From the NCBI GenBank assembly GCA_963805065.1, contig CAWDSS010000010.1:536359-600358 (forward strand): DNA of 64,000 nt, written 5' to 3'. The translations under genes were made by a program, and so were the position numbers. The notes below the pieces were generated by a model. That model had not been told where the DNA came from, made no database searches, and saw only the letters and a list, made by a program, of their open reading frames with translations. Of the stretch, positions 43,479 to 64,000 are shown in pieces (position 1 is the stretch's first letter; each line of letters begins with the position of its first letter). This DNA is from Candidatus Omnitrophota bacterium (GTDB taxonomy: Bacteria; Omnitrophota; Gorgyraeia; Gygaellales; Profunditerraquicolaceae).

Positions 43479-43527
43479 TTTATTTACCTATATATAAAAG
43501 AAAAAAGTTAATGCTTCCCCTTACCCC

Positions 43528-43568
43528 AACCACTGATTTCACGGATTTTTCAATCACGGATTTCACGG
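43528..43568. repeat. Left arm of inverted repeat bracketing the giant-gene promoter and leader
   Basis: AACCACTGATT-T-CACGGAT-N8-CACGGAT-N2-CACGG. Its partner lies at 44063-44101. Confidence 0.8.
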
Positions 43569-43650
43569 TTTCGCCTCATTTAAAAAGCTTTATAAAACTT
43601 ATTAGTAAGTCCTTAAATAAAAAAGGTTGTCAAATACTGACTTTTCTCGT

Positions 43651-43750
43651 CGATATTCGGCAACCCGGCTATCTTTTCTTGCTTGACTTGGAATCTCCAA
43701 GACCCGTGGCTTTGCGCCCCCTGATCACTCAGGGTTTACCTTTTCGATCC
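43651..43750 (-). promoter_or_regulatory. GEMM-I (c-di-GMP-I riboswitch)-like aptamer candidate in the giant-gene leader
   Basis: Minus-strand RNA GGAUCGAAAAGGUAAACCCUGAGUGAUCAGGGGGCGCAAAGCCACGGGUCUUGGAGAUUCCAAGUCAAGCAAGAAAAGAUAGCCGGGUUGCCGAAUAUCG. It has GGUAAAC, then a 6-bp hairpin with a GNRA loop (CCCUGA-GUGA-UCAGGG), then GCGCAAAGCC, a second hairpin, and AGCCGGGUUGCCGAAU. From memory, the Vc2/GEMM-I blocks are GGCAAAC ... GACGCAAAGCC ... AGCGGGGUUACCGAUGG. Confidence 0.5.
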
Positions 43751-43772
43751 CCTACTTTTCAATTGCATTTCA

Positions 43773-43801
43773 AGTATAACATTTCAATAATCCCTTGTCA
43801 A
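43773..43801 (-). promoter_or_regulatory. Sigma-70-type promoter of the giant gene
   Basis: Minus strand TTGACA (43796-43801), 17-nt spacer, TATACT (43773-43778), about 295 nt upstream of the ATG. Confidence 0.6.
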
Positions 43802-43852
43802 GCCGAAAGTTAGGAATTAAAGATAACGCTTTCTTATCCCCATCTTTTTACA

Positions 43853-43909
43853 GGGACACCCAATATTTCAAAGCAGGGACACCCTTGTTTCTGAAGCTAA
43901 AGGTGTCCC
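43853..43909. repeat. GGGACACCC REP-like element, type 1 (half-site plus hairpin)
   Basis: GGGACACCCAATATTTCAAAGCAGGGACACCCTTGTTTCTGAAGCTAAAGGTGTCCC. It is near-identical to 54795-54851. Confidence 0.8.
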
Positions 43910-43957
43910 CTCTACCCTAAAATCTAGTAGATTATCCTTACAAACCTAATTCTACAT

Positions 43958-43993
43958 AGGGACACCCTTCCGATTGATTTCGAGGGTGTCCCT
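43958..43993. repeat. GGGACACCC REP-like hairpin, type 2
   Basis: AGGGACACCCTTCCGATTGATTTCGAGGGTGTCCCT. It differs at one base from the copy at 56838-56873. Confidence 0.85.
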
Positions 43994-44062
43994 GCTGTTC
44001 TATGTTTGCGGTGAATGAACCAAATTTTCGGGCTTTAATGATGAATTTTCGGGTATTTCTTT

Positions 44063-44101
44063 TTCCGTGTTATCCGTGTACGTTCCGTGTAATCAGTGGT
44101 T
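44063..44101. repeat. Right arm of the inverted repeat (reverse complement of the left arm)
   Basis: Reverse complement reads AACCACTGATT-A-CACGGAA-N4-CACGGAT-N2-CACGGAA. The first 11 bp are identical to the left arm, and both arms carry three CACGG sub-repeats. Confidence 0.8.
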
Positions 44102-44174: not shown

Positions 44175-45044
44175 TTAACCTTTGAACAAATTACCTTGCG
44201 TGAATTGTAAGATAATTGGACCGGCGATAACTATTCCTATAACCGGCAATATGCAGAATATAAGCGGGATAAGCATTTTCATGGGGGCTTGTAGGGCTAT
44301 TCTTTCTCCTCTTTGTGCCCGTTGCATCCTGACGTCCTCAGACAACATACCCAGGACCTCAACCACGGGGGTACCCATTCTTTCTGCCTGGGTGAGAGTA
44401 TTGACAAAAGAGCGTATCTCCGGAAGCTCTATCCTTTTGGCCATATCTTTTAAAGCCTGTAAACGGGGCTTGCCCCATTTTATTTCTTCCAGGACAAACG
44501 CTAATTCTTCTATCATAGGGTTGGTTTTGGTCTTCTTAACTATCCATTCCATGGACATGGTAAAATCTAATCCTGCATCCATGCACAGGCTCAATAAATC
44601 TACTACCTCAGGCAGCACTTTCGAAATAACTTGCCTGCGTTTTGCTATTCTCTTGCTTAGCCAAACATCAGGAATCATATAACCAAATGCCAAAGCCGCA
44701 ACTATGGCAGGAGCTACAATCTTGCTAAATATAAGATAGGTTACAAATACTAAAGCAATCATTAATACAAACTTTAGGCTGAAGAATTCTACGGGTGTCA
44801 GCTTAAGGCGGGCAGCATACAGCCTCTGGTAAATCTTTTCTTTTAACTTGGGGTTCTGCAAGGCGAAGTTGCTGAGCCGAAACACCGGTTTTAAATACCT
44901 CAGGAAATCCGCCTTTACTCCCGTAGGTAGTTCTGATGAGGGAAGGCGCTGGCGTATCTGGGCGTTACTGTTCATAATGCCCAGGGTTGCCGTAAGCACA
45001 AGGCCGATAGCAACGATGAAAAATAAGAAAATCAGGTATATCAT
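44175..45044 (-). CDS. tadC: Tad/Flp pilus inner-membrane platform protein TadC (T2SS-F family)
   Basis: 289 aa. GspF-like core LPEVVDLLSLCMDAGLDFTMSMEWIV ... RSFVNTLTQAERMGTPVVEVLGMLSEDVRMQR with N- and C-terminal TM helices. It is the second of two tandem paralogues. Confidence 0.8.
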   Translation of the reverse strand: MIYLIFLFFIVAIGLVLTATLGIMNSNAQIRQRLPSSELPTGVKADFLRYLKPVFRLSNFALQNPKLKEKIYQRLYAARLKLTPVEFFSLKFVLMIALVFVTYLIFSKIVAPAIVAALAFGYMIPDVWLSKRIAKRRQVISKVLPEVVDLLSLCMDAGLDFTMSMEWIVKKTKTNPMIEELAFVLEEIKWGKPRLQALKDMAKRIELPEIRSFVNTLTQAERMGTPVVEVLGMLSEDVRMQRAQRGERIALQAPMKMLIPLIFCILPVIGIVIAGPIILQFTQGNLFKG

Positions 45045-45046
45045 GT

Positions 45047-45895
45047 TTAGAAATCTATCTTACTGAATTGGATTATTAAAAAAATCCCCAATATCTGCAG
45101 GAAAGCAGCTGCCATCAAAAACATCCTGCCGACATCGCTTTGCAGCATAATATCAAAATGATGCCTGTTTATCGTAAGCACCCATCCGATAAACGCAATG
45201 GGTAATACCGACATGACTACGCCCTGAATCTTTCCCTGAAGAGTCAAGGTGGTTATCTGGTCTCTGAGTTTACGTTTAGCCCTCATGGTTTCGGCAAGCC
45301 TAGAAAATACCTTGGTAAGGTCGCCTCCTGTTTCGCGCGCCACAAGTATGGAACTTACCATCAGCTCAAGGTCATCAGATTGGGTGCGTTTATTTAGGCG
45401 GGCAAGACTCTCCTCCAGGGGAATCCCTACCTTGTTCTCCCTTAAAACCAGGCTGAATTCCTGGTTAAGGGGTGGAGGCATTTCTTCCACTACAACTTCC
45501 ATGGCCTGCAATAAAGATAGGCCTCCTTTTAATGCCGAGGAAAGCGTCATCAGCGCATCTACAAGCTGGTTTTGAAACTTTTTCTTACGCGTCACTTCGA
45601 TTCTCTTGATTATAACCTCAGGCAAAATAAAACCTGCGGCCATGCCGATTAATACGAAGGCTATCTTATTAAAAATAAAAAAAGCTGCTGCTGCCAAAAT
45701 AACCGGGCTTAGGGTATAATATAAAAAGAGCTTGCTGGTGGGAACCATCACGAACATATCTTCCAGCTGGGTCTCTGCCTGGCTTACCTTCTTTCTCTGG
45801 GCGCGGTGAAATTTATTGGTAAGAAAAGGCACCAGCTGGCTGCCAATCAAACCTACCGAAGCAAACATAAATATCAATATGATTAGTTTAAGCAT
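45047..45895 (-). CDS. tadB: Tad/Flp pilus inner-membrane platform protein TadB (T2SS-F family)
   Basis: 282 aa. LVDALMTLSSALKGGLSLLQAMEVVVEEMPPPLNQEF ... LMVSSILVARETGGDLTKVFSRLAETMRAKRKL. TM helices at both ends. Confidence 0.8.
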   Translation of the reverse strand: MLKLIILIFMFASVGLIGSQLVPFLTNKFHRAQRKKVSQAETQLEDMFVMVPTSKLFLYYTLSPVILAAAAFFIFNKIAFVLIGMAAGFILPEVIIKRIEVTRKKKFQNQLVDALMTLSSALKGGLSLLQAMEVVVEEMPPPLNQEFSLVLRENKVGIPLEESLARLNKRTQSDDLELMVSSILVARETGGDLTKVFSRLAETMRAKRKLRDQITTLTLQGKIQGVVMSVLPIAFIGWVLTINRHHFDIMLQSDVGRMFLMAAAFLQILGIFLIIQFSKIDF

Positions 45896-45910
45896 AAATA
45901 AACCTGGCTG

Positions 45911-46132
45911 CTACTCGAACCTGCCGCAGGGAATGAGGTTTCCTGCGGAATCATAACATTTGGTGCCGGTCGGATAATACTGCCTGCCGTGGCCGAATGT
46001 ATCTCCCACATCACGCCACCTGCCGGTTATCGCCCTCCTTAAATAAACTGACATGGCAAGCAATGCAGCTACGATTATTGCGATTAACACTGCGTACTCT
46101 AATGAACTAAAGGCCTTGCGTATATTAATCAC
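45911..46132 (-). CDS. Flp/pseudopilin-like small protein
   Basis: The N-terminus MINIRKAFSSLEYAVLIAIIVAALLAMSVYLRRAITGRWRD shares the xSxLEY + hydrophobic helix + Y-x-(K/R)R motif with the pilin paralogues at 50.7-52.8 kb. Confidence 0.55.
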   Translation of the reverse strand: MINIRKAFSSLEYAVLIAIIVAALLAMSVYLRRAITGRWRDVGDTFGHGRQYYPTGTKCYDSAGNLIPCGRFE

Positions 46133-46580
46133 CTGCCCCCTCCCATTGTATATTAATCAACTTCTTTCCCCCTGATTCGAACAGGGTGAATAAAACTGTT
46201 TTTGATTTTAGATTATAATCCGCTGATACGACTGTTTCTAAGCCGCCTTTTTGGTAAATGCGCCAATTAGTAACTGCTTGAAATTTTCCTCCCGCCTGCC
46301 TTGAGCCTCGGGCAAAACTTTTATAAAATTCTCTCCTGTAAGCTTCCTTTTCCTTTGCGTTAGCAAGCTTACTATAGGTTGCCCCCACGTCTAAACCTAA
46401 AGCCTTCAGATGCTCCCAGTCAACGAACTTTTCCATGTCTTGTTTTCCTTCCACAAAGCCCTGGAAAATACCGCGGCATAATTCTATATCGTTAGGCTGC
46501 TGTCTGTATAAATAGACGGCGAGGATTAACGCAAGGATGATTAGGACAAACCCCAAAACCTTCTTATATTCATTATTCAT
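46125..46580 (-). CDS. Hypothetical membrane-anchored protein
   Basis: 151 aa with an N-terminal TM (VLGFVLIILALILAVYLY). Tightly packed within the operon. No family recognised. Confidence 0.5.
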   Translation of the reverse strand: MNNEYKKVLGFVLIILALILAVYLYRQQPNDIELCRGIFQGFVEGKQDMEKFVDWEHLKALGLDVGATYSKLANAKEKEAYRREFYKSFARGSRQAGGKFQAVTNWRIYQKGGLETVVSADYNLKSKTVLFTLFESGGKKLINIQWEGAGD

Positions 46581-46583
46581 AGC

Positions 46584-49415
46584 TTAGTGCGTTCCAGACA
46601 AAGACACGTCTGTAGCCGTATAGCTAGCGCGGCTCGTGCGTTTAATGGTAGTTGTCGGCCCGGCAACAGGACTCCAGATTAAACCCAGGTTAGCCGAGCC
46701 AGAATGAGTAAGCGCCGTTCCCGCAGGGTCAGTTCGGGTAATTTCTATCCAGGTGTTTTTGGAATCTTTGTCCCACCAAAGTTTCTGGCACTTCTTACCC
46801 CTAAGCCAGTTTCCCGAAGAAGTCTTGTGTAAATAAGGGAACAAAAATGCCCCGGTTTCCACCCTCACAGAATGTTCTCCTTCAGTATCCTTCCAGCTGT
46901 ATTCTACTGCTCCTTTTCCATCTTTAGCGCGATTATCCGGAGAGCTTATCAAGACATCGTTAAACTGCTGTAATTCCGGAAGAAAAGCATTGATACTCTG
47001 AATTTCATCTGTCAGTGTATCTAAAACCGGCTGAAATTCATCTTGGTTATCTTGGTCTATGGTAGCAAAGGTATCATCAGATGCGCCATTGTAAGTAAGG
47101 TTGCTGATGTAATTTTGCAACGCTGTTAGGCGGCTATTAAAAGTGGCTGGGGCTGTTGCTGGTATATTCAGATCAGGCGCGGCAATACTACGGCTTACAG
47201 TGCCCCTGCCTGACCCGGGGTATGTTGTTGTGGTGGTTGTGGTAGTGGTGCAACCAGCGTTGCCAGTTTGAATGCAGCTGCAAGTCCACCAGCCGTAAGG
47301 ATTCCAAATGCAAGGAGACGCGCAACAGGGTGAAGTCGGGGCGCATACACTGCCATATACAGGCCATGCGCCTGTGCCATCAGGAGCAGGACGCGTAGTG
47401 CCTGCCACTGATAGAGTTCCACATGAAATTGGGGTGGTCGTGCTTGTAGTACAAGTGCAAGTATATGTATATGACACATCCCAACTCATTGTTCCAGAAC
47501 CAGGGGGGCCCAACGGCGTGGTACTACAACCGCTATGAATAGGGCTGGTTAGTCCCACGCTATTTATACTGGTTATTGCAATACTGCCAACAGAACATGT
47601 GCCGGGATAAGGACAGGAAGCTGCAGAATAGCCTGTAGTGGGCGGGCTTAAGTAGTTACTTCCGGCAACAGCTATCTCATTAAGCAGGATAGATTTGTCT
47701 GACGGATAAACTTTACATATAGGATTGGGGAAATAGGGACCGGTAATGCTTGTTCCGGTCAGCCTCCAATTACAGGAATAATCACTATCATTGCAAGAAT
47801 ATTCTGCTGCACTTTCTTCTTTATAAACAGTGGTGCTACCCGTGTTATATGCCAACTGGCAACCCGGCAAACTATTCCTTACCCTAGTAATCTGGTCTTT
47901 CCAATCATTCATCCAAGTAGCAATTCCTGCTAACATATTGTAGTGATCCATTGTCGTAGCTGTATGATGCGAGTAATACAGGTTATCAAACCAGTCCCAA
48001 TCATCAGAGCCTCCGCTGGGATATCTTTGCTTTAACTGTTGGCTCAATTGATTTGCGTCATATTTATAAAAGCCGCAGGAATCCGGCTTTAATATGTCTT
48101 TTGCGTCTTTAAGGAAATCTTCGTAATGCATGCGGGCGTAATCATAATCATCCAAGCTTGATGGCAGGTCAGGGCAATCAGTATCGCTGTTTTCATTACA
48201 ATTATAATAAGCATCGAGGTCGGCTTGTGTAGGGCCGGGTATGTAGAAAATAGCATACCCGCAATGCGCAATAGCGTCCAACAGACGGGTCATCGGAGAC
48301 TCTGAGCCTAAATAATACGCGGACGTGCCGGAACCCATTGCGACCTCTGGACCGCAAGAACATTCTATTTCTTTTCTATCCATCTGCTTAATGAAATCCG
48401 AAGCCTGCTCATAAAATGGAATCAGGGAATTAGTTAAGAAATTATTTACCAAATCCTTGAGATTGGTAATTGAGTTTTGCAGGTTCTGCAGATGATTATA
48501 CCACCAATAATCAAAACAGCGAGTCCTTTCAGCGGTTATGCCGTCGTGGTCTAAATCCAGGGGGTCTCCTCCGGAAACTACGACCGAGGAATCATTCCAG
48601 GTAACCCAGTTGCCGTCAGAGGAAGTCCAGCCAACTGAGGTATTTTCACCACAAGTAACGTCTTTGGAAAGATTAGTCATAGTCGGGTCATCCACCACCT
48701 GATTAAGCGCATAGAGAAATATCCCTTCCCTGGCAGCTTCATATTCAGGCAAGCCGTTTAACATCTTATTTAATGTAGACATATTCTGGCTATTTATTGC
48801 TGCCTTGTTACTTGCGTTATAAGCAATGGCTCCTGTGCCAACTGTCCCTGTTGCAGCTGAAGCTACAGCTACTACATCGCCTATTGATATACTGGACAAT
48901 TCTCCTGATGCTAAACCAGCAAATTCCTTTGCTGCAAACTCGGACCCTCCAAAAAAAGCGCTTGCCGCAGCAAACCCCTGCAGCGCTCCCATTCCAGCCC
49001 CATTTACTCCTTGCACAATCATGTTTCCAATGGCTCCTGCAGCTGTAACTAAACCGAAAAATCCTACCCATCCCCATAAGCCTGCTGGCGGACAGCAAAT
49101 TGTTAAAACTAATGCTACTATGAAAGCAAGCACAACGCCTAATAATCCACTCCTGCTGCATTTGCTATAGCTATTACCCAATGCCACATAGAGATAATGA
49201 GCTTTAGAAGCAAGCGTGCTTCCTAAATAAAGCGCAGTAGAATCAGCTGCATTGGCAACTGTGGTTGCCCTATAAGAAACAGTGCCCAGGTTAAGCGTAA
49301 CCAAAATAAACACTATCACCGCCACCATTATCAGTATAAGTATAGTGGCGATTTGGCCTCCAGCCGCCTGTATTTGGAGGTTGCGTAACGAAGATATTCT
49401 CTTTAAATAAATCAT
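46584..49415 (-). CDS. TadG-like large pilus-associated protein with a Cys/Thr-rich C-terminal half
   Basis: 943 aa. The N-terminal GGQIATILILIMVAVIVFILVTLNLGTV resembles the TadE/G-like anchor. A Gly-rich hydrophobic block follows (GLWGWVGFFGLVTAAGAIGNMIVQGVNGAGMGALQGFAAASAFFGG). The C-terminal half has many Cys and a T9 run (CTTTTTTTTTYPGSG, about 47215-47260). Confidence 0.6.
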   Translation of the reverse strand: MIYLKRISSLRNLQIQAAGGQIATILILIMVAVIVFILVTLNLGTVSYRATTVANAADSTALYLGSTLASKAHYLYVALGNSYSKCSRSGLLGVVLAFIVALVLTICCPPAGLWGWVGFFGLVTAAGAIGNMIVQGVNGAGMGALQGFAAASAFFGGSEFAAKEFAGLASGELSSISIGDVVAVASAATGTVGTGAIAYNASNKAAINSQNMSTLNKMLNGLPEYEAAREGIFLYALNQVVDDPTMTNLSKDVTCGENTSVGWTSSDGNWVTWNDSSVVVSGGDPLDLDHDGITAERTRCFDYWWYNHLQNLQNSITNLKDLVNNFLTNSLIPFYEQASDFIKQMDRKEIECSCGPEVAMGSGTSAYYLGSESPMTRLLDAIAHCGYAIFYIPGPTQADLDAYYNCNENSDTDCPDLPSSLDDYDYARMHYEDFLKDAKDILKPDSCGFYKYDANQLSQQLKQRYPSGGSDDWDWFDNLYYSHHTATTMDHYNMLAGIATWMNDWKDQITRVRNSLPGCQLAYNTGSTTVYKEESAAEYSCNDSDYSCNWRLTGTSITGPYFPNPICKVYPSDKSILLNEIAVAGSNYLSPPTTGYSAASCPYPGTCSVGSIAITSINSVGLTSPIHSGCSTTPLGPPGSGTMSWDVSYTYTCTCTTSTTTPISCGTLSVAGTTRPAPDGTGAWPVYGSVCAPTSPCCASPCIWNPYGWWTCSCIQTGNAGCTTTTTTTTTYPGSGRGTVSRSIAAPDLNIPATAPATFNSRLTALQNYISNLTYNGASDDTFATIDQDNQDEFQPVLDTLTDEIQSINAFLPELQQFNDVLISSPDNRAKDGKGAVEYSWKDTEGEHSVRVETGAFLFPYLHKTSSGNWLRGKKCQKLWWDKDSKNTWIEITRTDPAGTALTHSGSANLGLIWSPVAGPTTTIKRTSRASYTATDVSLSGTH

Positions 49416-49431
49416 CCTGGCCTCTTAATCG

Positions 49432-49692
49432 CTAAAAATTCTTGAAAAAATCTAAATTTGCCAACTCATCTTCATTAACCTCTACTGTCCAGTTGGTCGC
49501 AGTATCTGCTGCTATTTCCCGGCCACATTCAGGGCTGCTTTCATAATACTGCTGGCGGATGACCAGTCGGTTATTCACATAAAGGAATATTGCCACTGCT
49601 GCCCAAAAAAGAAGCAGCACGATGACCATGGCAAAAGCGAATTCTAAAGTTACCTGGCCGTTACCAGGGTGTTTCCTGGGTCTGTTTTTCAT
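49432..49692 (-). CDS. TadE-like minor pilin
   Basis: 86 aa. GNGQVTLEFAFAMVIVLLLFWAAVAIFLY matches the TadE-like N-terminal motif. Confidence 0.6.
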   Translation of the reverse strand: MKNRPRKHPGNGQVTLEFAFAMVIVLLLFWAAVAIFLYVNNRLVIRQQYYESSPECGREIAADTATNWTVEVNEDELANLDFFKNF

Positions 49693-50743
49693 TCCTGTTC
49701 TCGGTATTGGTTATAGGAGTCTCGGTAACTGTACTAGTTCCATAATGCCTGAACACAATCATCCTGATATTGCTATAATTTTGGCTTAAGGTATCGGTTG
49801 TAGTTATGCCTGTAGTTGCCTCCTGTTTCCTTAATGTGTTATTCTTTATATGGGTATCTGTGTAATCCTGCTGCACACCCATGCTCTTTAAATTGTTGGC
49901 AGCAACACTAAAAAGATTATCTAACTCACTTCCGCAATACCAGGGAATCTCAATATCGGGGCTGCAGAGTTGGGAACAATTGGTTCCTGACTCAAGCTGG
50001 CATTCTTTTACGCAAAAATTCTTGTCGGTTATAGTGTTGCACTGCCTCTTACAACCGCTATAATCCAAAATTTCTCCTTCGCAGGAATCAATAACCTTTA
50101 TAGAGCTTAATGTATTCCAATTTGGATCTTTTTGGTCCCAGTTGCTTCCACCGGAAGTTAACCCTTGCATATTTTGAGCAGTGTATATCAATGCATATTT
50201 TTGCCACCTGCGTTCTTTTTCGCAATTGTCAGTGGTCCCTATGGCAATATTGCGGAACCCCGCAGTAAGATAATAACAGGGAGGATTACTTCCCGGCGGC
50301 GAAAGCCGGCAATTGTTTCTACACGCACTATCATTAGCTGCGCAAGTCCCACAAGCTACCGCTCCGTCTGGCCCGCCGCTGCCAGGACAAGTGCTGCCTT
50401 TAATATCAATTGCCATTGCTGGCAATTCATCAATATAATCTGCGGTTTCATTCATTGTATAATTACGTATAACAGAGGCAGCGGAATTTGCGGGGATAAA
50501 AGAACCCTGCCCAAAGGCATCGCTGGGATCGGGTATGTGCCTATCGCTTATATATATGTAGCTGGCTGTTCCTTTTTGCTTGGCGAGTATTAATGCCCTT
50601 CTAAATGTTTGCTGCGTTATCTGTTGCAGGTAATTATTTTTTAGGCCGTAAGAAAGGAGGGCTGCGATAAAGGCTATTAACAGGGCTCCTAAGATGGAAA
50701 TTTCCAATAATGATTGCGCCTTTTTTTTCCTATGAATTAGCAT
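49661..50743 (-). CDS. Pseudopilin-like protein with a large Cys-rich domain (TadF/minor-pilin candidate)
   Basis: 360 aa. The N-terminus is KKKAQSLLEISILGALLIAFIAALL. About 15 Cys are spread through the C-terminal 250 aa. Confidence 0.5.
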   Translation of the reverse strand: MLIHRKKKAQSLLEISILGALLIAFIAALLSYGLKNNYLQQITQQTFRRALILAKQKGTASYIYISDRHIPDPSDAFGQGSFIPANSAASVIRNYTMNETADYIDELPAMAIDIKGSTCPGSGGPDGAVACGTCAANDSACRNNCRLSPPGSNPPCYYLTAGFRNIAIGTTDNCEKERRWQKYALIYTAQNMQGLTSGGSNWDQKDPNWNTLSSIKVIDSCEGEILDYSGCKRQCNTITDKNFCVKECQLESGTNCSQLCSPDIEIPWYCGSELDNLFSVAANNLKSMGVQQDYTDTHIKNNTLRKQEATTGITTTDTLSQNYSNIRMIVFRHYGTSTVTETPITNTENRNEKQTQETPW

Positions 50744-50756
50744 CGCTTAACAACTC

Positions 50757-51134
50757 TTACGGTAATGGCCCAACATCCTCCCAGCCGTTCTGTCTTGTAT
50801 TATCATGACTGGAAACAGTATCTGTGGTCCTTAGCCTTCCCCCTACTTCATTAGTAGTGGCGCTGGAAGTGCTTGTACTGTTCGATGTAATGGTGATATC
50901 GGAAGTTGTGTTTTTTGGTTCGTAGGAATTGCCAATCTGATCGGCACTATCTCGGTAATTGCCCTGGAAGCTTCTTTTTATATATGAGGACATGCTTATG
51001 AGTGCAGCTACAAACACTGCTATGACCACGGCATATTCCAAAGCTGATTGCGCTTTGCTTAATTTAATAAGTCTTGTCTCTGTCTGAATGCGATTGGTCA
51101 TGCGGCACATCGCCTTGTGACGCCTGGTTAACAT
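50757..51134 (-). CDS. Flp-like pilin paralogue (start uncertain; the track start overlaps the upstream gene by 71 nt)
   Basis: LSKAQSALEYAVVIAVFVAALISMSSYIKRSFQGNYRDSADQIGNSY followed by an S/T-rich tail. Confidence 0.6.
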   Translation of the reverse strand: MLTRRHKAMCRMTNRIQTETRLIKLSKAQSALEYAVVIAVFVAALISMSSYIKRSFQGNYRDSADQIGNSYEPKNTTSDITITSNSTSTSSATTNEVGGRLRTTDTVSSHDNTRQNGWEDVGPLP

Positions 51135-51411
51135 CCGTTCTATAACTTCCGTCTACAAAACTTCTTTTTCTTGTGACCCCGGAGCTGCTGCCAGTTTGAG
51201 AAGATTCATCTATCCATACACCATCCTTAGCCGTCTCGTTAGCATCTTCCTGGCTGCCTACCTGGTCCGCTGCTACTCTTACTACTGCCTGAATCCCGCG
51301 CTTCATGTAAACCTGCATGCCAACGAGAACAGCACTGACAATTGCGATTAGTATAACATATTCCGCTATACTTTGTCCACTATAAAGATGTCGTAATTCC
51401 TTGCTTTCCAT
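51064..51411 (-). CDS. Flp-like pilin paralogue
   Basis: SGQSIAEYVILIAIVSAVLVGMQVYMKRGIQAVVRVAADQVGSQ. Confidence 0.65.
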   Translation of the reverse strand: MESKELRHLYSGQSIAEYVILIAIVSAVLVGMQVYMKRGIQAVVRVAADQVGSQEDANETAKDGVWIDESSQTGSSSGVTRKRSFVDGSYRTDVNQASQGDVPHDQSHSDRDKTY

Positions 51412-51453
51412 GATCTTTTCGCGAATTTGCCAGTGCTGCCCCCTATTAGCTTT

Positions 51454-51777
51454 TTACGGATACCACTCCTGATCCAAAGCACCCACGTTCTCACTGGTAT
51501 TCTTATTTTGAGCCTGATTCGTGACCACGTTAGTTGTTGACCCTGGTCCTCCTGATATGGTTTCTACAGAATGACCCTGCGTTATACTTGTAAGAGAAGT
51601 ACTTGATGTGGTCTGAGGAGAAAACTGATCGCCAATATCATTGGATGAATCTCTTAGTTTACCCTGAACACCACGTTTAATATAACTGGACATAGCAATT
51701 AATGCAGCTACGATTACTGCAATAACTACAGCATATTCAAGCGTATTCTGCCCTTTTTTATTTAAATGAATAAACAT
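51454..51777 (-). CDS. Flp-like pilin paralogue (start moved to the ATG at 51777)
   Basis: GGAGGTG lies 6 nt before the ATG. MFIHLNKKGQNTLEYAVVIAVIVAALIAMSSYIKRGVQGKLRDSSNDIGDQF. The track start at 51786 is a GTG inside the SD. Confidence 0.7.
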   Translation of the reverse strand: MFIHLNKKGQNTLEYAVVIAVIVAALIAMSSYIKRGVQGKLRDSSNDIGDQFSPQTTSSTSLTSITQGHSVETISGGPGSTTNVVTNQAQNKNTSENVGALDQEWYP

Positions 51778-51807
51778 TACTTTCACCTCCTTAGATTAAA
51801 CTTTTAT

Positions 51808-52134
51808 TTACGGCGTTGCAGTCATAGTCTGGTTACGATTAGCTGTTGTATCCATGTTGGAACCCCTGGTTGTTGCTCCGCCTAAACTTACATTTTCATT
51901 CTGGCTTCCAGTCTGATCAGTTGTGGTAGTGCCAGTAAGATAATACGGTTCGTATTGTTTGGTGTCTGTGGTAGTCGCCATACCCGAACCCATATTGTCT
52001 ACCACGTCCTTAACCTTTCCCTGTAACCCTCTTTTTACATATATCTGCATTGCTGTAACTGCAGCTACTACTAAAGCAATTAAGATTGCGTATTCAGCGG
52101 TGGTTTGTGCCCTTTTACCAATTTTACGTAACAT
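51808..52134 (-). CDS. Flp-like pilin paralogue (start moved to the ATG at 52134)
   Basis: GGAGGTG lies 6 nt before the ATG. MLRKIGKRAQTTAEYAILIALVVAAVTAMQIYVKRGLQGKVKDVVDNMGSG. Confidence 0.7.
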   Translation of the reverse strand: MLRKIGKRAQTTAEYAILIALVVAAVTAMQIYVKRGLQGKVKDVVDNMGSGMATTTDTKQYEPYYLTGTTTTDQTGSQNENVSLGGATTRGSNMDTTANRNQTMTATP

Positions 52135-52149
52135 TCGTCTCACCTCCTT

Positions 52150-52314
52150 TTAGAAATTTATTTTCTGTGCTTCATTATTCATCTGCGTTGCCGCGTTTTC
52201 TAATGAGCTCTGGACCTTAGGCTTCAAGAAATTGTTAGCGAAGATGATTATTACTGCGATAATCGCGGTCAAGATAATCACGTACTCTAATACACTTTGT
52301 CCCTTCTTGTTCAT
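52150..52314 (-). CDS. Short Flp pilin (54 aa; start moved to the ATG at 52314)
   Basis: GAGGAGGTGA lies 4 nt before the ATG. MNKKGQSVLEYVIILTAIIAVIIIFANNFLKPKVQSSLENAATQMNNEAQKINF. Its size and G-QSVLEY motif are typical of a mature-pilin precursor. Confidence 0.7.
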   Translation of the reverse strand: MNKKGQSVLEYVIILTAIIAVIIIFANNFLKPKVQSSLENAATQMNNEAQKINF

Positions 52315-52378
52315 TTTGTCACCTCCTCTCATATTTATGCTCAATAAATATCTACCCATCTATCACCTCCTTCAATAA

Positions 52379-52537
52379 TTACTGTATCGATTCTACATTG
52401 GTCTGTTGCTGGATCATTAATAAGTTTGCGTATATTGAACGCCTTACATATAGGCTTATCGCCATTATAGCCGCTAAAACAATGGTAATAAGCAAGCTGT
52501 ACTCCAACACACTCTGGCCTTTATATTTTCTTATCAT
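52379..52537 (-). CDS. Short Flp pilin (52 aa) absent from the ORF track
   Basis: The ATG at 52537 lies one base after the TAA of the upstream gene, and AAGGTG precedes it. Hand translation: MIRKYKGQSVLEYSLLITIVLAAIMAISLYVRRSIYANLLMIQQQTNVESIQ, stop at 52379-52381. Confidence 0.65.
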   Translation of the reverse strand: MIRKYKGQSVLEYSLLITIVLAAIMAISLYVRRSIYANLLMIQQQTNVESIQ

Positions 52538-52538
52538 C

Positions 52539-52754
52539 TTACCACACCTTGTTATCAGCGTTAATTATGGCATCAAACCCTTTTTGAGCATAACCTGGTG
52601 TTGCGGAAGTGCCTTGCGCTGTATCTCTCACGCTTCCAAAAAAGCTATTTATCGTACCGCCTAATGTAAGCAAGGTTAAAAAAATCACCGCTGTAAAAAG
52701 TAAAAAATACTCTAAAGTAGCTTGCCCTCTTTTTAAAGACTTTTTTAAAATCAT
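52539..52754 (-). CDS. Flp-like pilin paralogue, first gene of the pilin operon
   Basis: GAGGAG lies 6 nt before the ATG. MILKKSLKRGQATLEYFLLFTAVIFLTLLTLGG. Confidence 0.7.
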   Translation of the reverse strand: MILKKSLKRGQATLEYFLLFTAVIFLTLLTLGGTINSFFGSVRDTAQGTSATPGYAQKGFDAIINADNKVW

Positions 52755-52795
52755 TATTAACTCCTCAAAAAATAAACCGAGTCACACGAATCTCT

Positions 52796-52950
52796 AACGG
52801 CATTCGCTAACCCGGTTAACTTACTCGCTTAGACCCAAAAACAAAAATAAAAACTTTTTTTCCGGCGAGCATATCCCGTGGCTTTGCGCATCCACTTACC
52901 TCCATAAGTGAGATGCTCCCTCCGTAACCCGGAGGAATTTCGCTGCCGTT
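52796..52950 (-). promoter_or_regulatory. Leader RNA of the pilin operon sharing GEMM-I-like blocks with the giant-gene leader
   Basis: Minus RNA has a closing stem AACGGCA...UGCCGUU. Inside it are the hairpin CCUCCG-GGUUA-CGGAGG, an extra hairpin CACUUA-UGGAGG-UAAGUG, then UGCGCAAAGCCACGGG and later AACCGGGUUAGCGAAUG. The two blocks GCGCAAAGCCACGGG and CCGGGUU-CGAAU also occur in the giant-gene leader. Confidence 0.35.
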
Positions 52951-52974
52951 ATTTATATCTTTAATGACACTTAA

Positions 52975-53003
52975 AATATAACATCTATAACATCAAGTGT
53001 CAA
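52975..53003 (-). promoter_or_regulatory. Sigma-70-type promoter of the pilin operon
   Basis: Minus strand TTGACA (52998-53003), 17-nt spacer, TATATT (52975-52980). Confidence 0.6.
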
Positions 53004-53033
53004 GGACATTTCGGGTTAAAATGAAAGCGCTTG

Positions 53034-54707
53034 CTAAACTGCAAACCAGAGCCTTAATTTCTGGGAGGTTAAAATTTCCCTTTCGTTCAATCTGCGGCAG
53101 GCATACTCAAGATCTTTTAATAATGGGAACCCCTGTGGTGGTTTGAAAGTTATCCTTAACCCATCTTTTTCTTGGCTTATATCAGTGGTTAGTTTGTAAA
53201 AGTGTTCTTTTGTGAAGGCAAAATCCTTATTTTCATATCCCACGGGTAAAAAGTGCCATCTTACATATAAGTCTAATGCTTCCAGATAGTTACTGAATAG
53301 AATCCCGCTTTCAGGGTTGGTTTCTTTCTCTAATTTAAGTATTTCTGTAGAAAAAAACCTGCCAGAAGCACCGGTATATGTGAAAAGTTCAATTTTTCGG
53401 CTGTAGTCATGGAATGCCTCTTCAAAATTCGGCCAGTGGCTTAGATATGCATTTAGCCATTGAGAAGCAGGTGCATCATCAACAAAATTAGTCAAAACAA
53501 TTAATCTTGTTTTCTCGGTCAAATTTGTTTTTAAAGCATTGCCTCTAAACGTAACATGTTGACTTGTATTTGGTTGTGTTAACTCAATTTCGATTTCTGC
53601 AGCATATATTTCTTTGCCCAGCGGTTCTGCAAAAAATGGCTTAAATTCCCCTATCTTTTTCACTTTTCTATACTCTACGAACTGCCAAGGCCATAACCCG
53701 AAGACAAAATATTGCTTTTTATCCTGGTTTATAGAAAGGCGCTCCAATTCATCAAAATTACTGTCACAAAGAGTCAGTTGTGTAATTTTCTTTGCCGTAG
53801 AATCAAAACTTAAGATAAAACTAAAGAACTCTTTGGTAGGAGCATCATATCCCGGCGCCATGAACAGCAAAAAAGGAGAATTATCCCGAAAATATCTATT
53901 TATGTAACTCTTGATATCATAAATAGTTGTGGAAAAATCGTGAGGGATATGCGGCGTGGACCAAATTGTATGTAACTGTCCATCTAAATACATGATGCTG
54001 CCATCAGACATATTGACTTTAACACAGCGCACTTCCTGCAGTGTGCTGGATATTATGCGTAATAGATCTAAAGGAATTGATTTAACTGATTGCAATTCAT
54101 TGAGATAAGCTACGATGGTTTCAGCGGGTATTTCCTGGCCTGCTAAGGGATATGCAATGCTTTTTGGCGCTTCTTTAGCACCTTGGAACAAACCAAGATA
54201 AATAAGGCTTTCTGTCTTAGCTAAAAAGTCCTCGTTCGGCCGGTTGAGCCTGGCTTTGATAGCGTCGGAAAAGTAGTAGCTGCCGCCAATAAGGTAATCA
54301 GCTGCCTTAAGTAAGATAGCGCCTGTACAGGCTATCTTTTTAGGCTCTTGAGCCTTAATTTCGACGAGTGGTTCTGCAACCTTAATGGGCTTTGGCTGGG
54401 GCTCTGGAACCGGAATCACTGGCGCAGGCGCTTCAGGCTTAATTTCTACCGGTACTTCAAGCAACTTCGGTTCCTGTGGTTTTTCCAGCATAACTACAGG
54501 CTTACGCCTCTTTTTTTGCCTCCTTCCCACCGGCAGGCTTAACCCCTGTTGCTTTATAATTGAATTTATGCTGGATTTAGAGAGTTTTATCTGAAATTTC
54601 TCTTCTACCAAGGCAGTCATACCGCGACAGCTTAGGATTGGCTTGGTTTTTTTCTCCTCTAAAATGAAATCTATTATTTCCGGCTTTAATTTGTAAATTA
54701 CGCCCAT
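53034..54707 (-). CDS. HTH-domain protein, possibly transposase-like or a regulator (start moved to the ATG at 54707)
   Basis: GGAG lies 5 nt before the ATG. The N-terminus MGVIYKLKPEIIDFILEEKKTKPILSCRGMTALVEEKFQIKLSKSSINSIIKQQGLS looks like an HTH. A K/P/E-rich linker and a roughly 430-aa unrecognised domain follow. The track start at 54755 would lie inside the predicted promoter. Confidence 0.6.
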   Translation of the reverse strand: MGVIYKLKPEIIDFILEEKKTKPILSCRGMTALVEEKFQIKLSKSSINSIIKQQGLSLPVGRRQKKRRKPVVMLEKPQEPKLLEVPVEIKPEAPAPVIPVPEPQPKPIKVAEPLVEIKAQEPKKIACTGAILLKAADYLIGGSYYFSDAIKARLNRPNEDFLAKTESLIYLGLFQGAKEAPKSIAYPLAGQEIPAETIVAYLNELQSVKSIPLDLLRIISSTLQEVRCVKVNMSDGSIMYLDGQLHTIWSTPHIPHDFSTTIYDIKSYINRYFRDNSPFLLFMAPGYDAPTKEFFSFILSFDSTAKKITQLTLCDSNFDELERLSINQDKKQYFVFGLWPWQFVEYRKVKKIGEFKPFFAEPLGKEIYAAEIEIELTQPNTSQHVTFRGNALKTNLTEKTRLIVLTNFVDDAPASQWLNAYLSHWPNFEEAFHDYSRKIELFTYTGASGRFFSTEILKLEKETNPESGILFSNYLEALDLYVRWHFLPVGYENKDFAFTKEHFYKLTTDISQEKDGLRITFKPPQGFPLLKDLEYACRRLNEREILTSQKLRLWFAV

Positions 54708-54743
54708 TTTATCTCCAGATTGGACATTTATAATCTCAATACA

Positions 54744-54772
54744 AATATAACACACATAGAATAAGCTGTCAA
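54744..54772 (-). promoter_or_regulatory. Sigma-70-type promoter of the HTH gene, flanked by AGATTGGACATTT copies
   Basis: Minus strand TTGACA (54767-54772), 17-nt spacer, TATATT (54744-54749). The 13-mer copies at 54717-54729 and 54780-54792 bracket it. Confidence 0.55.
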
Positions 54773-54794
54773 GTAATTTAGATTGGACATTTTA

Positions 54795-54851
54795 GGGACA
54801 CCCAATATTTCAAAGCAGGGACACCCTTGTTTTTGAAGCAAAGGGTGTCCC
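54795..54851. repeat. GGGACACCC REP-like element, type 1
   Basis: GGGACACCCAATATTTCAAAGCAGGGACACCCTTGTTTTTGAAGCAAAGGGTGTCCC. The hairpin arms lie at 54818-54826 and 54843-54851. Confidence 0.85.
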
Positions 54852-54859
54852 TCACCCCA

Positions 54860-56340
54860 AACGAAAAAATCTTTGTTAGAAATAGTGACCTGATACGTCT
54901 GTTATGTTAGAGAGTGTCAAACTTTATTACATGATAGACCTGCCAGCTTTTAGAGCCTTTTAACTTTCTGTTATGCGTGGCATGCCGAAATTTCGGCATC
55001 GCACTATTTAATTTTGCGTTTGGAGCCTAGGGGTCCCTATCTATTATCGAGCCTTATAGCTCTGACGTACGACCGAGTCATCCCCAGAGGCAAGCGTTGC
55101 TTGTGGCTCTTAAGGCTTGGCATCTAAATATTAGCGATGTATTCACGCTGCTCTTTTAAAACTCTATAAATAATCAAGGTTAATTTACGCGCCACCGCGA
55201 CAATGGCTTTACGTGAGCCAACCTGAGGATGATGTTTAGCGCGTATGCGATCGTAGAATTGGCGCAGCCGTGCATCTTTGTTAATGTTCGCCCAGGCAGC
55301 TTCAACCAGTAAGGACCTAAGCACAGAGCTGCCTAAATGGGTGATACGACCTCGCAAGATTCGTTCTCCTGTTGAGTATTCACTAGGCACGAGTCCCGCA
55401 AAAGCAGATAACTCTCTGGGGTTACGCAACTGCTGTGGGTCACCAATGCTTGCAAGAATAGTTATAGCGGTAATAAAGCCTATGCCGGGAATAGAGCGAA
55501 GATAATGTATATTGCGTTTAAGGCTTGCATCTTGCTCAGAGAGCTTTTTAAGCTCTTTAAGGATTATCAAAGTTTGGTTACGTGAATACTCTAGGTCATT
55601 AAGGAGTAAATCTAATCTTTGGCGCGTAGCCGGGCTACAGGGTAGTTCTTTGAGTCGTTTAATATGTGCATAAGACCAATACTGGGTCGTATCTTTTAAT
55701 AGTGTGTGCAGATGGGCAAAAAGTAGAAGCGATTTGATGCGTTGTTTGCTTACTTTACGCATATCGACATATTCTTCACGCGAACGAAGCAGCTGGCGCA
55801 GCTCCCGGCAATCGTAATCCGGGATACGAATAGGTTGCATATCGCCGTTCTTTAAATGCTGGGAGATTCTCTCTGAATCAAGGCGGTTATTCTTGATACG
55901 ATCATTACTGGCTTTGGGGATTGATGGAGGCGGTACCATTAAACACCTTATGTTTTTTGATGTTAAATAATCATGCAGATAATAACCAGTTACTCCGACT
56001 TCATAAGCGCAGATAACCCTTTTATTATTATACCTGTTGCGTATATGTTGGTAAAGATTTTCCGGATTAGCCGGTATTTTGTGCGAGTTGTTCATGGTAT
56101 CGTGATTTTTGACGGTAAATGAGAAGCTTTTCTGATCAACGTCTATGCCTATGAAAATATCGTACTCGTTGGGGCTGTACGCCATGCTTTCCTCCTGGTT
56201 AAACGGTTAAACTATTTACCTTTAGTTTACACCATATTTTGGAAAGCTCGGCACTCTAAACATATTATCTATTATAGTAAAGGCAAAAGTAAAAAGCCAA
56301 AAGGAAAAAGTTAGGGCTAAGTCAAAAATAAGAGGAGGTG
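54860..56340 (-). mobile_element. IS110-family insertion sequence (ends not determined)
   Basis: A single DEDD transposase gene has about 260 nt of structured non-coding sequence downstream and about 160 nt upstream. IS110-family elements lack classical terminal inverted repeats, so the boundaries cannot be read off. Confidence 0.5.
55124..56185 (-). CDS. IS110-family (DEDD) transposase/recombinase
   Basis: 353 aa. N-terminal IFIGIDVDQKSFSF (RuvC-like DEDD). C-terminal LRSIPGIGFITAITILASIGDPQQLRNPRELSAFAGLVPSEYSTGE...GRITHLGSSVLRSLLVEAAW, typical of the IS116/IS110/IS902 family. Confidence 0.85.
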   Translation of the reverse strand: MAYSPNEYDIFIGIDVDQKSFSFTVKNHDTMNNSHKIPANPENLYQHIRNRYNNKRVICAYEVGVTGYYLHDYLTSKNIRCLMVPPPSIPKASNDRIKNNRLDSERISQHLKNGDMQPIRIPDYDCRELRQLLRSREEYVDMRKVSKQRIKSLLLFAHLHTLLKDTTQYWSYAHIKRLKELPCSPATRQRLDLLLNDLEYSRNQTLIILKELKKLSEQDASLKRNIHYLRSIPGIGFITAITILASIGDPQQLRNPRELSAFAGLVPSEYSTGERILRGRITHLGSSVLRSLLVEAAWANINKDARLRQFYDRIRAKHHPQVGSRKAIVAVARKLTLIIYRVLKEQREYIANI

Positions 56341-56346
56341 ATATAA

Positions 56347-56829
56347 ATGCCTAGAGGTGCACGATTATTTGTAAATAATGCCTATTATCATATTGTCAAT
56401 CGCGGAAATCAAAAAGAGAAAATATTCATAGAACCCCCCGATTTTGAAAAATACCTACAGCTGTTAAAACACTACAAACGTAAATACGCTTTCGAAATCT
56501 TTGGCTATTGCCTCATGCCTAATCATGTTCACATAGTATTAGGGGCTAAAGCGGCGCATAAGTTGCCAAAGTTTATGCAAAGCTTGACTCAAACATACAC
56601 TATGTGGTTCAATGGCAAATATAATAAAGTTGGCCATCTTTGGCAGGGAAGATTCAAATGCATGATTATTCAAAGAGATGAATATTTTCTGGAAAGTATA
56701 TATTATGTTGAGGCTAATCCTGTAAGAGCCGGTATGGTTCATTCTCCTAAAGATTATGTTTGGAGTAGCTATAAAGACAGGATCTTCGGTAATAGAAACG
56801 GTTTGTTAGATCTGCCTGATTCAACCTAA
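56347..56829 (+). CDS. REP-associated tyrosine (Y1, HUH) transposase, RayT/IS200-like
   Basis: 160 aa. HUH motif in GYCLMPNHVHIVL. Tyr region SIYYVEANPVRAGMVHSPKDYVWSSY. AGGAGGTG SD. GGGACACCC hairpins lie immediately downstream. Confidence 0.8.
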   Translation: MPRGARLFVNNAYYHIVNRGNQKEKIFIEPPDFEKYLQLLKHYKRKYAFEIFGYCLMPNHVHIVLGAKAAHKLPKFMQSLTQTYTMWFNGKYNKVGHLWQGRFKCMIIQRDEYFLESIYYVEANPVRAGMVHSPKDYVWSSYKDRIFGNRNGLLDLPDST

Positions 56830-56837
56830 TAGCTGAT

Positions 56838-56873
56838 AGGGACACCCTTCCGATTGATTTCAAGGGTGTCCCT
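56838..56873. repeat. GGGACACCC REP-like hairpin, type 2
   Basis: AGGGACACCCTTCCGATTGATTTCAAGGGTGTCCCT, 9 nt after the RayT stop. Confidence 0.85.
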
Positions 56874-56881
56874 TGATTGAA

Positions 56882-57238
56882 TTATTGGGTGTCCCTATTT
56901 ACAAAGAGAATCTCGTCACCTGCGGAAGTATGATGGGTTTCTATTGTGCCTGCGGGAAGTTCGATAGCTAACTGAGAGCTAAAATATATTGGGGTAAGGT
57001 GAAAGGGCATTATGGAGGAAACGGCTTTTACCACGCGGTTATGTTTATCCAAGAATAATACATCAATGGGAAAACGCATAAACAAGGTATGAATTGAATT
57101 GCAGGGGTCCAATATCAAAGCTTGCCCTTTAAGAAATTTTTTCCTGCCTAAAAGGCCCCTCATCCTGGTAAGTGGGTTATTCGCCACTACAGCATTATCT
57201 GCCAAGATATTATTGTTGGTTTTATTAATGACCTGCAC
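56882..57238 (-). CDS. DUF192 (COG1430) family protein
   Basis: 118 aa. NNPLTRMRGLLGRKKFLKGQALILDPCNSIHTLFMRFPIDVLFLDKHNRVV ... AIELPAGT matches the DUF192 pattern. Confidence 0.7.
   Translation of the reverse strand: MQVINKTNNNILADNAVVANNPLTRMRGLLGRKKFLKGQALILDPCNSIHTLFMRFPIDVLFLDKHNRVVKAVSSIMPFHLTPIYFSSQLAIELPAGTIETHHTSAGDEILFVNRDTQ
56887..56895. repeat. Isolated GGGTGTCCC half-site overlapping the 3' end of the DUF192 gene
   Basis: TATTGGGTGTCCCTATT. On the minus strand it encodes the last residues ...NRDTQ and the stop of ORF 56882-57238. Confidence 0.8.
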
Positions 57239-57240
57239 GG

Positions 57241-59403: not shown

Positions 59404-59412
59404 TGTTTAATC

Positions 59413-61017: not shown

Positions 61018-61022
61018 CCTTA

Positions 61023-63688: not shown

Positions 63689-63707
63689 AAAAGTCGGTAC
63701 TATGTAA

Positions 63708-63782
63708 TAGCCCCAACGAGATTTGAACTCGTGTACTCAGCTTGAGAAGCTGATGTCCTAGACCGGGCTAGACGATGGGGCC
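63708..63782 (-). tRNA. tRNA-Glu (anticodon CUC)
   Basis: Minus strand GGCCCCAUCGUCUAGCCCGGUCUAGGACAUCAGCUUCUCAAGCUGAGUACACGAGUUCAAAUCUCGUUGGGGCUA. It has a 7-bp acceptor stem (G1-U72 wobble), a GUCU/GGAC D-stem, an anticodon stem UCAGC/GCUGA with loop UUCUCAA, and a T-arm ACGAG-UUCAAAU-CUCGU. No CCA is encoded. Confidence 0.85.
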
Positions 63783-64000
63783 AAAGTTTCATTAAAATAA
63801 TAGCATAATTCTAAGGACTATCAATAATTATGTTGACCCGTCTTTGCAACTATTATATACTGATTTTATTTACAACCACTTAATGACTAATGCCGAAATC
63901 CGAATGCCTAATAAATGCCTAATTCTTAAATGTTTAAATGTCTAATTAAGCATTAGAAATTTAGACATTAAAAATTAATTAGGAATTAGAATTTAGAAAT

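Follow-up and report, generated by a model that had tools for sequence, protein, structure and literature searches.

A GEMM-I aptamer in the leader of an Omnitrophota giant gene, and its predicted role as a c-di-GMP-dependent transcriptional ON switch

How might a bacterium control a gene that is more than 43 kb long? The question is raised by a stretch of 64,000 nucleotides (nt) from a Candidatus Omnitrophota bacterium (GenBank assembly GCA_963805065.1, contig CAWDSS010000010.1, positions 536,359 to 600,358), hereafter referred to as the window. Its minus-strand reading frame from the ATG at 43478 is stop-free for 14,492 codons and still open at position 1, where the window edge cuts it, so that this length is a lower bound. 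Some of the giant genes of the Omnitrophota, a phylum with hardly any cultivated members, are among the longest reported in bacteria. An initial annotation of the window had correctly placed the gene at more than 43 kb and had proposed that its leader carries an aptamer resembling GEMM-I, i.e., the class I riboswitches for cyclic di-GMP (c-di-GMP). Our analysis suggests that this leader is a riboswitch of class c-di-GMP-I (GEMM-I) that turns transcription ON, for which c-di-GMP-dependent anti-termination is the most likely mechanism and, in our judgment, a probable one.

All the RNA elements that had been listed are present on the minus strand, in the order given. These are GGUAAAC (43740-43734), the P1b hairpin CCCUGA-GUGA-UCAGGG (43734-43719), GGCGCAAAGCCACGGG (43718-43703), a second hairpin, CUUGGA-GAU-UCCAAG, which lies within P2, and AGCCGGGUUGCCGAAU (43670-43655). 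A scan of the whole window with Rfam cmscan assigns the segment 43749-43655 (minus strand) to RF03167 (c-di-GMP-I-GGC), over the full length of the model, with 63.6 bits against a curated cut-off of 59 bits and an E-value of 1e-12. This is the sole riboswitch match reported for the window at curated thresholds, and a second model of the same clan, CL00126, likewise scores above its own cut-off on the aptamer. RF01786 (c-di-GMP-II), which had been put forward as a control, gives no match in 43400-44100 at E-values up to 10, where the remainder of the permissive scan is noise, and none window-wide at the gathering threshold. Together with the covarying helices described below, these results support the original assignment, and we conclude that the leader element is almost certainly a GEMM-I aptamer of clan CL00126.

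The aptamer occupies 43655-43749 of the minus strand. Positions within it are given in the numbering of Vc2, which we take to correspond to the window by way of the Rfam consensus and the Vc2 sequence. P1 is formed by 43747-43745 and 43659-43657, and P2 by 43711-43701 and 43673-43662, with the equivalent of G83 at 43669. G21 and U22 (43739-43738) pair with G45 and C46 (43715-43714), and the bulge GGC (43718-43716) ends in the equivalent of C44, at 43716. The tetraloop of P1b, GUGA (43728-43725), is of the GNRA type that marks type-1 aptamers.

The aptamer is preceded by a promoter that had been described as a perfect sigma-70 promoter. The promoter is indeed present, but the adjective is slightly generous: the −35 hexamer TTGACA (43796-43801, minus strand) and the −10 hexamer TATACT (43778-43773), 17 nt apart, agree with the consensus at 11 of 12 positions. 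The −10 is of the extended type, with a TG two bases ahead of it (43781-43780, followed by one base; element span 43773-43781). The window has three matches to TTGACA-N16-18-TATAHT, each of them on the minus strand, whereas shuffled sequences lead one to expect 0.16. Since the usual distance from the −10 to the start is 6-8 nt, transcription presumably begins near 43766. The distance of about 20 nt quoted earlier for GGUAAAC holds only approximately, as 32 nt separate it from the −10 and 23 nt separate the −10 from the start of the Rfam match.

The same arrangement is found elsewhere in the phylum. Eight contigs with homologues of the N-terminus of the giant protein share the gene order T2SSF-T2SSF-C39 gene, and in five of the eight an Rfam match of the clan, above cut-off, lies directly upstream of the C39 gene. 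A scan by N-terminal alignment, with one genome per species, yielded 70 loci, nearly all labelled Omnitrophota. With a covariance model of our own, R1, built from five aptamers, 65 matches were obtained in the window and 78 loci, that of the window scoring 101.6 bits. Of the 60 species-level Omnitrophota genome loci in which the estimated start is preceded by at least 330 nt of sequence, 52 have the aptamer, and the median distance between it and the start codon is 165 nt; in the window, the distance from its last base, 43655, to the ATG is 176 nt. Twenty of 20 further homologous loci exceed a curated Rfam cut-off, 18 of them with RF03167 and two with RF01051 (57.8-59.2 bits against a cut-off of 35). 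In 53 of 56 homologous loci, a promoter that agrees with the consensus at 10 or more of 12 positions precedes the aptamer by 14-33 nt.

Both helices covary among the homologues. On the model-fitted alignment of the 65 matches, 94.2% of the cells are paired, compared with 28-44% in slid controls, and 14 of the 21 base pairs have changed on both sides, values reached in none of 500 shuffles. MAFFT and RNAalifold, applied to 32 sequences in an independent alignment, recovered both P1b and P2. Promoter, aptamer and the terminator described below recur in 52 of the 60 species-level loci, and their association with the C39 giant gene extends across the phylum.

Which ligand would such an aptamer bind? 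The roles of G20, A47 and C92 in ligand recognition have been described, as has a universally conserved pair between the two helices (PMC4744006). In the window their equivalents are G 43740, A 43713 and C 43660, and the inter-helix pair C44-G83 corresponds to C 43716 and G 43669. Over the 58 best matches, window included, G20 is a G in 56, A47 an A in all 58 and C92 a C in 57; C44 and G83 are kept in 57 each, and P1b is capped by a GNRA loop in 57. Judged by its bases, the pocket is the canonical G20/A47/C92 pocket of the c-di-GMP type. The initial annotation had pointed to two departures from the consensus. Both are real, but both lie outside the pocket, and neither contacts the ligand. The change from C to U in GGCAAAC falls on position 22, which pairs with position 45 and covaries with it (C-G in 29 sequences, U-A in 21, U-G in 12). 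The change from A to G before CGCAAAGCC falls on the bulge position 43, which is G in 39 members of the lineage and A in 19.

The best-scoring model, over its full length, is nevertheless that of a variant, and an aptamer that senses something other than c-di-GMP, whether of the Rfam 'GGC' or the cyclic AMP-GMP (c-AMP-GMP, GEMM-Ib) type, is one of two alternatives that survive best, each of them unlikely. The GGC variant was reportedly described by Weinberg et al. in PNAS in 2017. We deduce its hallmark from the consensus lines of RF03167 (...GACGCGAAgCc...) and RF01051 (...GACGCAAAgCc...), which differ at one strongly conserved position, G versus A, at the equivalent of A47. RF03167 is the top model for the window and, as noted, for 18 of 20 tested homologues, yet the distinguishing G is replaced: the window reads CGC-A-AAGCC rather than CGC-G-AAGCC, with a mismatch at model position 37 (A 43713), and an A occupies this position in every one of the 58 homologues. 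An unrelated aptamer from a metagenome (L080), which has A47, likewise reaches 60.9 bits with RF03167, so that the model is not specific for its own hallmark base. Evidently, it wins through overall shape rather than through the variant base, in that P2 is short here and, judging from the consensus and structure lines, the compact RF03167 presumably fits it better than RF01051 does. The 'GGC' label on the window is thus best regarded as an artefact that arises when the models compete. As RF03167 outscores RF01051 on aptamers with the canonical A47 (the window, L006-L045 and L080), a GGC annotation taken alone is no sign of an altered pocket.

The c-AMP-GMP type fares no better. The importance of position 20 for c-AMP-GMP riboswitches has been documented (PMC9481103); the window has G 43740 there and not the A typical of them, and position 92 is C. 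One homologue of the 58 (L032:2733-2839) does have an A at the position of G20 (GAAAAAGUAAAC), a signature that is associated with c-AMP-GMP selectivity, and it is the only one. The initial annotation held that ligand specificity could not be assigned by eye. We find that it can be argued from the sequence, in that G20 speaks against c-AMP-GMP and A47 against the GGC type. The ligand is likely c-di-GMP.

The predicted direction of the switch follows from what lies immediately downstream. The expression platform, which the initial annotation had not described, consists of an intrinsic terminator overlapping the aptamer. Its hairpin (43624-43666, minus strand) has as its 5′ arm GGGUUG (43666-43661) and CGAAUAU (43659-43653), which are also the 3′ strand of P2 and P1, and as its 3′ arm GUAUUUG (43637-43631) and CAACCU (43629-43624). 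The U-tract UUUUUUAUUU (43615-43624) comes directly after the stem, and a similar U-run follows it in nearly all homologous loci. RNAfold gives the hairpin −17.2 kcal/mol (z −3.78), and none of 200 shuffles is as stable. When the 155-nt leader is folded without constraints, the minimum-energy structure (−43.7 kcal/mol) contains the terminator and lacks P2; with the aptamer pairs forced, the energy is −27.5 kcal/mol.

This overlap is a property of the family. At nearly every locus, about 31-40 nt past the 3′ strand of P2, there is a UUGACA(A/G)YYCGG followed by U5-7 AUUU, and the former is complementary to the 3′ strand of the aptamer, CCGGG(U/C)UG-C-CGAAU. Across 49 loci the 12-pair terminator helix is 94.3% paired, compared with 17-48% in slid controls, and one of its pairs covaries between U or C on the aptamer strand and A or G on the distal strand (U-A 26, C-G 14, U-G 4). 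Because the terminator takes its 5′ arm from the 3′ side of P2 and P1, aptamer and terminator are mutually exclusive, and this exclusion predicts an ON switch, a polarity that we consider likely.

The second alternative is that the riboswitch is an OFF switch, or that it acts on translation or RNA stability instead of termination. Both polarities exist among GEMM-I riboswitches (PMC6366702), and in loci of the L006 type the linker GAGUUG, by our reading, can also pair with the 3′ arm of the terminator. An OFF design, however, requires a separate anti-terminator, and none is evident; in 49 loci the terminator has the aptamer's own 3′ strand as its 5′ arm, with covariation. Control at another level could find room in the approximately 130 nt of conserved leader, with its G-rich motif, beyond the terminator. 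Against direct sequestration of the ribosome-binding site, about 165 nt separate the end of the aptamer from the start codon, which is too far, and RNAalifold finds no conserved structure around that site. We therefore regard this alternative, too, as improbable.

A decaying relic or a chance resemblance without function is hardly credible: four homologous loci have lost the aptamer and kept the promoter and the distal leader, and three stripped-down aptamers fall below the Rfam cut-offs, but the E-value of the window match is 1e-12, and the pocket is intact and compensatory changes occur in 52 of 60 loci that are only about 30-45% identical to the window in N-terminal protein sequence.

The divergent loci merit description in their own right. 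In the aptamer-less ones, the region concerned lies about 200 nt upstream of the C39 gene; GGGGUAAGGGG, a motif of the distal leader, is present in L020 and L024, GGGGAAAGGGG is present in L047, and neither was found in L037. L047 retains a plain hairpin and a U-run. It looks as though the riboswitch was lost in some species. The stripped-down GEMM-I-like aptamers are located in the equivalent leaders of two loci (L004:5088-5156; L005:7187-7271 and 9878-9956). They lack the AAAC and GRC bulges, so that C44 is gone, have an A for G83, a loop that is not GNRA and a minimal P2, and retain G20, A47, C92 and the overlapping terminator; their Rfam scores (34.9 and 26.8 bits) are below the cut-offs. 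A metagenome scan for this form, with GGAAAGCCRCGG...AACCGGGTTGCCGAA, returned 10 loci, mostly other GEMM-I types in other contexts rather than the stripped-down variant. On a metagenome contig from a different context (L081:~8600-8950, minus strand), two GEMM-I-like aptamers stand in tandem, each with a terminator-like tail.

Several observations weigh against a c-di-GMP-dependent ON switch as the whole account of this leader. The clan competition in Rfam selects the GGC variant model and hides the RF01051 score of the window; judging from homologues whose best match is RF01051 (49-59 bits, against the cut-off of 35), this model very probably scores above cut-off on the window as well. The 3′ arm in the window, CAACC, is shorter than the family consensus, CAAYYCGG, and termination may be leaky there. 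A simple terminator scanner missed the riboswitch hairpin and flagged antisense hairpins only, because the loop of the hairpin exceeds the limit of the scanner. Four loci (L020, L024, L037 and L047) do without the aptamer and keep the promoter and distal leader. Genes for GGDEF, EAL and PilZ proteins are all absent within the window. Finally, a conserved leader of about 130 nt, including GGGGUAAGGGG, lies between terminator and start codon, so that the riboswitch may not be the sole control.

That distal leader has features of its own. GGGGUAAGGGG (43517-43527, minus strand) is found in 52 of 56 loci, 95-151 nt past the aptamer. Over the window and L006-L079, the motif at these positions reads GGGG(G)UAAGGGG(G)AA. 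It precedes the giant-gene start codon by about 45 nt, and after it come a pyrimidine-rich tract and AUAUAGGUAA, the latter being kept ahead of the start codon among homologues. RNAalifold yielded no consensus pairs for the distal leader around GGGGUAAGGGG. A small upstream open reading frame after the GGGGUAAGGGG motif was considered and dropped, as neither its frame nor its stop is conserved between loci, by eye. In C-richer genomes, the second G-run of the motif could pair with a downstream UUUYCCCC before a U-run, and a second attenuator might be present in the distal leader of those genomes. The window also has short direct repeats, GTGAAATCCGTGA...ATCCGTGAAAT, at 43536-43566 (minus strand), and ATCCGTGA, also in the distal leader, resembles the reverse complement of an ACACGGA repeat found upstream of the promoter.

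If the c-di-GMP-dependent ON switch is correct, events at this leader would proceed as follows. A strong and probably constitutive sigma-70-type promoter would start the RNA near 43766, and its first ~110 nt would fold into the two-helix GEMM-I aptamer with its canonical c-di-GMP pocket. Without ligand, the terminator would form, and RNA polymerase would stop about 150 nt into the transcript, before the >43-kb gene. With c-di-GMP bound, the aptamer would retain the shared strand, no terminator could form, and polymerase would read through. High c-di-GMP is the usual 'attach' signal; it would license the giant, membrane-anchored protein along with the adjacent Tad-like pilus machinery. We infer that binding raises read-through in vivo and couples the output of giant protein to the attachment state. 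Such a design would be economical, as the decision on a transcript of more than 43 kb would be taken some 150 nt into it.

The giant gene itself (1-43478, minus strand; at least 14,492 codons) starts with the ATG at 43478-43476, which is preceded by a probable ribosome-binding region, AGGU (43489-43486; together 43476-43489, minus strand). The protein has a Peptidase_C39 domain at residues 189-267 (32.4 bits), a methyltransferase domain near residues 6770-6842 and a weak Helicase_C match near residues 4777-4851, and its N-terminus includes a hydrophobic segment, which we read from the translation by eye rather than with a predictor. The domain search recognized nothing else across the 14,492 residues, and specifically no GGDEF domain in this first part of the protein. 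The first 800 residues match solely proteins from Candidatus Omnitrophica/Omnitrophota, with 31-55% identity.

Upstream of the leader, a locus resembling Tad and type II secretion systems extends over 44175-62951 (minus strand). It encodes a Rotamase_2 isomerase, RcpC/CpaB, a secretin with TonB_C, a ParA-like/T2SSE ATPase and DUF192, as well as an array of small class-III-signal/Flp-like genes, a TadE/G-like protein of 943 residues and two T2SSF proteins. West-Roberts et al. 2023 (bioRxiv 10.1101/2023.11.21.568195) have reported Omnitrophota giant genes that encode C39 domains close to the N-terminus and lie downstream of a conserved locus resembling type II secretion systems. The likeness to these 'Archaeovorin'-type genes is close: here, too, an N-terminal C39 domain is near a hydrophobic segment, and Rotamase_2, rcpC, gspD/E/F-like genes and small class-III-signal genes lie upstream. 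By the C39 domain and the upstream Tad-like locus, the window contains an Omnitrophota giant gene locus of this kind. The Tad-like locus is interrupted by transposases of the IS110 family and of an IS200-like (Y1_Tnp) type, at 55124-56185 (minus strand) and 56347-56829 (plus strand). In two homologous loci (L006, 8574-9278; L007, 8708-9415), a Y1_Tnp gene is located between tadC and the riboswitch promoter. These insertions agree with the comment of a 2026 preprint on mobile elements beside giant genes.

The interval between tadC and the riboswitch promoter contains repeats in the window as well, namely three direct ACACGGA repeats at 44090-44064 and the inverted repeats GGGACACC/GGGTGTCCC at 43992-43853 (both minus strand). 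In L004, L005 and L020 the upstream regions have other triple repeats (CAGATTGGACATT in L004), followed by palindromes of the GGGACA type. These repeats and palindromes may serve as operators or terminators. A gene for tRNA-Glu with the anticodon CTC (63707-63783, minus strand) is located at the upstream end of the locus.

A second near-consensus promoter, TTGACA-N17-TATATT, is found at 53003-52975 (minus strand), within the Tad-like locus. Behind it is a strongly diverged GEMM-I-like leader (52954-52799, minus strand; element span 52767-53003), which retains GCGCAAAGCCACGGG and AACCGGGUU. Its P1 is long (AACGGCA/UGCCGUU), it has large insertions, and at the C92 junction AGCGAA replaces GC. 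Next come a terminator-like arm and a U-run, just ahead of the first class-III-signal/Flp-like pilin gene (ATG 52754). R1 gives this leader only 14.5-16.5 bits (E 0.06 in 20 kb), Rfam has no match to 52954-52799 at E-values up to 1, and a regular-expression scan of other loci turned up no counterpart. This leader could be either a relic or a variant whose pocket is altered. The third consensus promoter, at 54744-54772 (minus strand), reads TTGACA-N17-TATATT, has TGT ahead of its −10 and overlaps the listed GTG start of an open reading frame of 573 residues (53034-54755), whose true start is probably a downstream ATG (MGVIYKL...). The leader behind this promoter is too short for a riboswitch.

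A link between giant genes and c-di-GMP has been noted in the literature, at the level of proteins only: pilZ genes are found downstream of Omnitrophota giant genes, and GGDEF domains within them (West-Roberts et al., bioRxiv 10.1101/2023.11.21.568195). It follows that such lineages make use of c-di-GMP around these loci. The pilZ neighbours and internal GGDEF domains are the only connection drawn there, and a riboswitch is not mentioned. A broader picture can be drawn from these elements, though we hold it to be doubtful: an Omnitrophota-wide c-di-GMP ON riboswitch would be the main checkpoint on giant-protein expression. If true, giant membrane-anchored proteins that are thought to act in prey attachment would be gated by c-di-GMP. 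Because many giant proteins carry GGDEF domains and pilZ genes lie downstream, the riboswitch could complete a positive feedback loop by which the cell becomes committed to attachment or predation. The second GEMM-like leader, ahead of the pilin genes, may then be a new specificity variant that coordinates the pilus with the giant protein.

The conserved riboswitch offers a first concrete and testable regulatory handle on the giant genes of Omnitrophota. It predicts that these genes are off by default and switched on by a defined small molecule, it would connect them with the neighbouring pilus machinery and with c-di-GMP signalling, and in vitro tests of it do not require a culture of the organism. 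To specialists the riboswitch chemistry itself will be unsurprising; the value lies in a testable rule for when giant genes are expressed. In the literature that we searched, which was not exhaustive, the papers on Omnitrophota giant genes make no mention of riboswitches, nothing relevant was found on a riboswitch in connection with Omnitrophota, Omnitrophica or giant genes, and the full-hit lists of Rfam may already include such sequences. The element is a further member of a well-known class, and what is new is its setting and its consistent recurrence.

Vc2 of Vibrio cholerae, which is of the RF01051 type, shares with the present aptamer the two-helix architecture and the GNRA-capped P1b, as well as the core GGYAAAC / GRCRCAAAGCC / AGCCGGGYUGCC, in which G20, A47, C92 and the pair C44-G83 are all present. 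The differences are that P2 is short and variable here and that this lineage mostly has U at position 22 and G at position 43; relative to the RF01051 class as a whole, an Omnitrophota host and a regulated gene of at least 43 kb are new, as far as the searched literature shows. A functional parallel, given the Tad-like pilus locus, is provided by Cdi-2-4 of Clostridioides difficile, which precedes pilA1 and permits read-through with c-di-GMP and causes termination without it (PMC6366702), although its aptamer, of class II, has a different fold. A precedent for the predicted mechanism is Bc2 of Bacillus thuringiensis, a validated GEMM-I 'on' switch with a terminator ahead of the adhesin gene cap (PMC4933901). 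Its host is a Firmicute, its function is validated, its gene is of ordinary size and its sequence is not closely related; in both cases, however, a GEMM-I aptamer is followed by an intrinsic terminator, and in Bc2 it is c-di-GMP that brings about read-through into the gene of a large surface adhesin.

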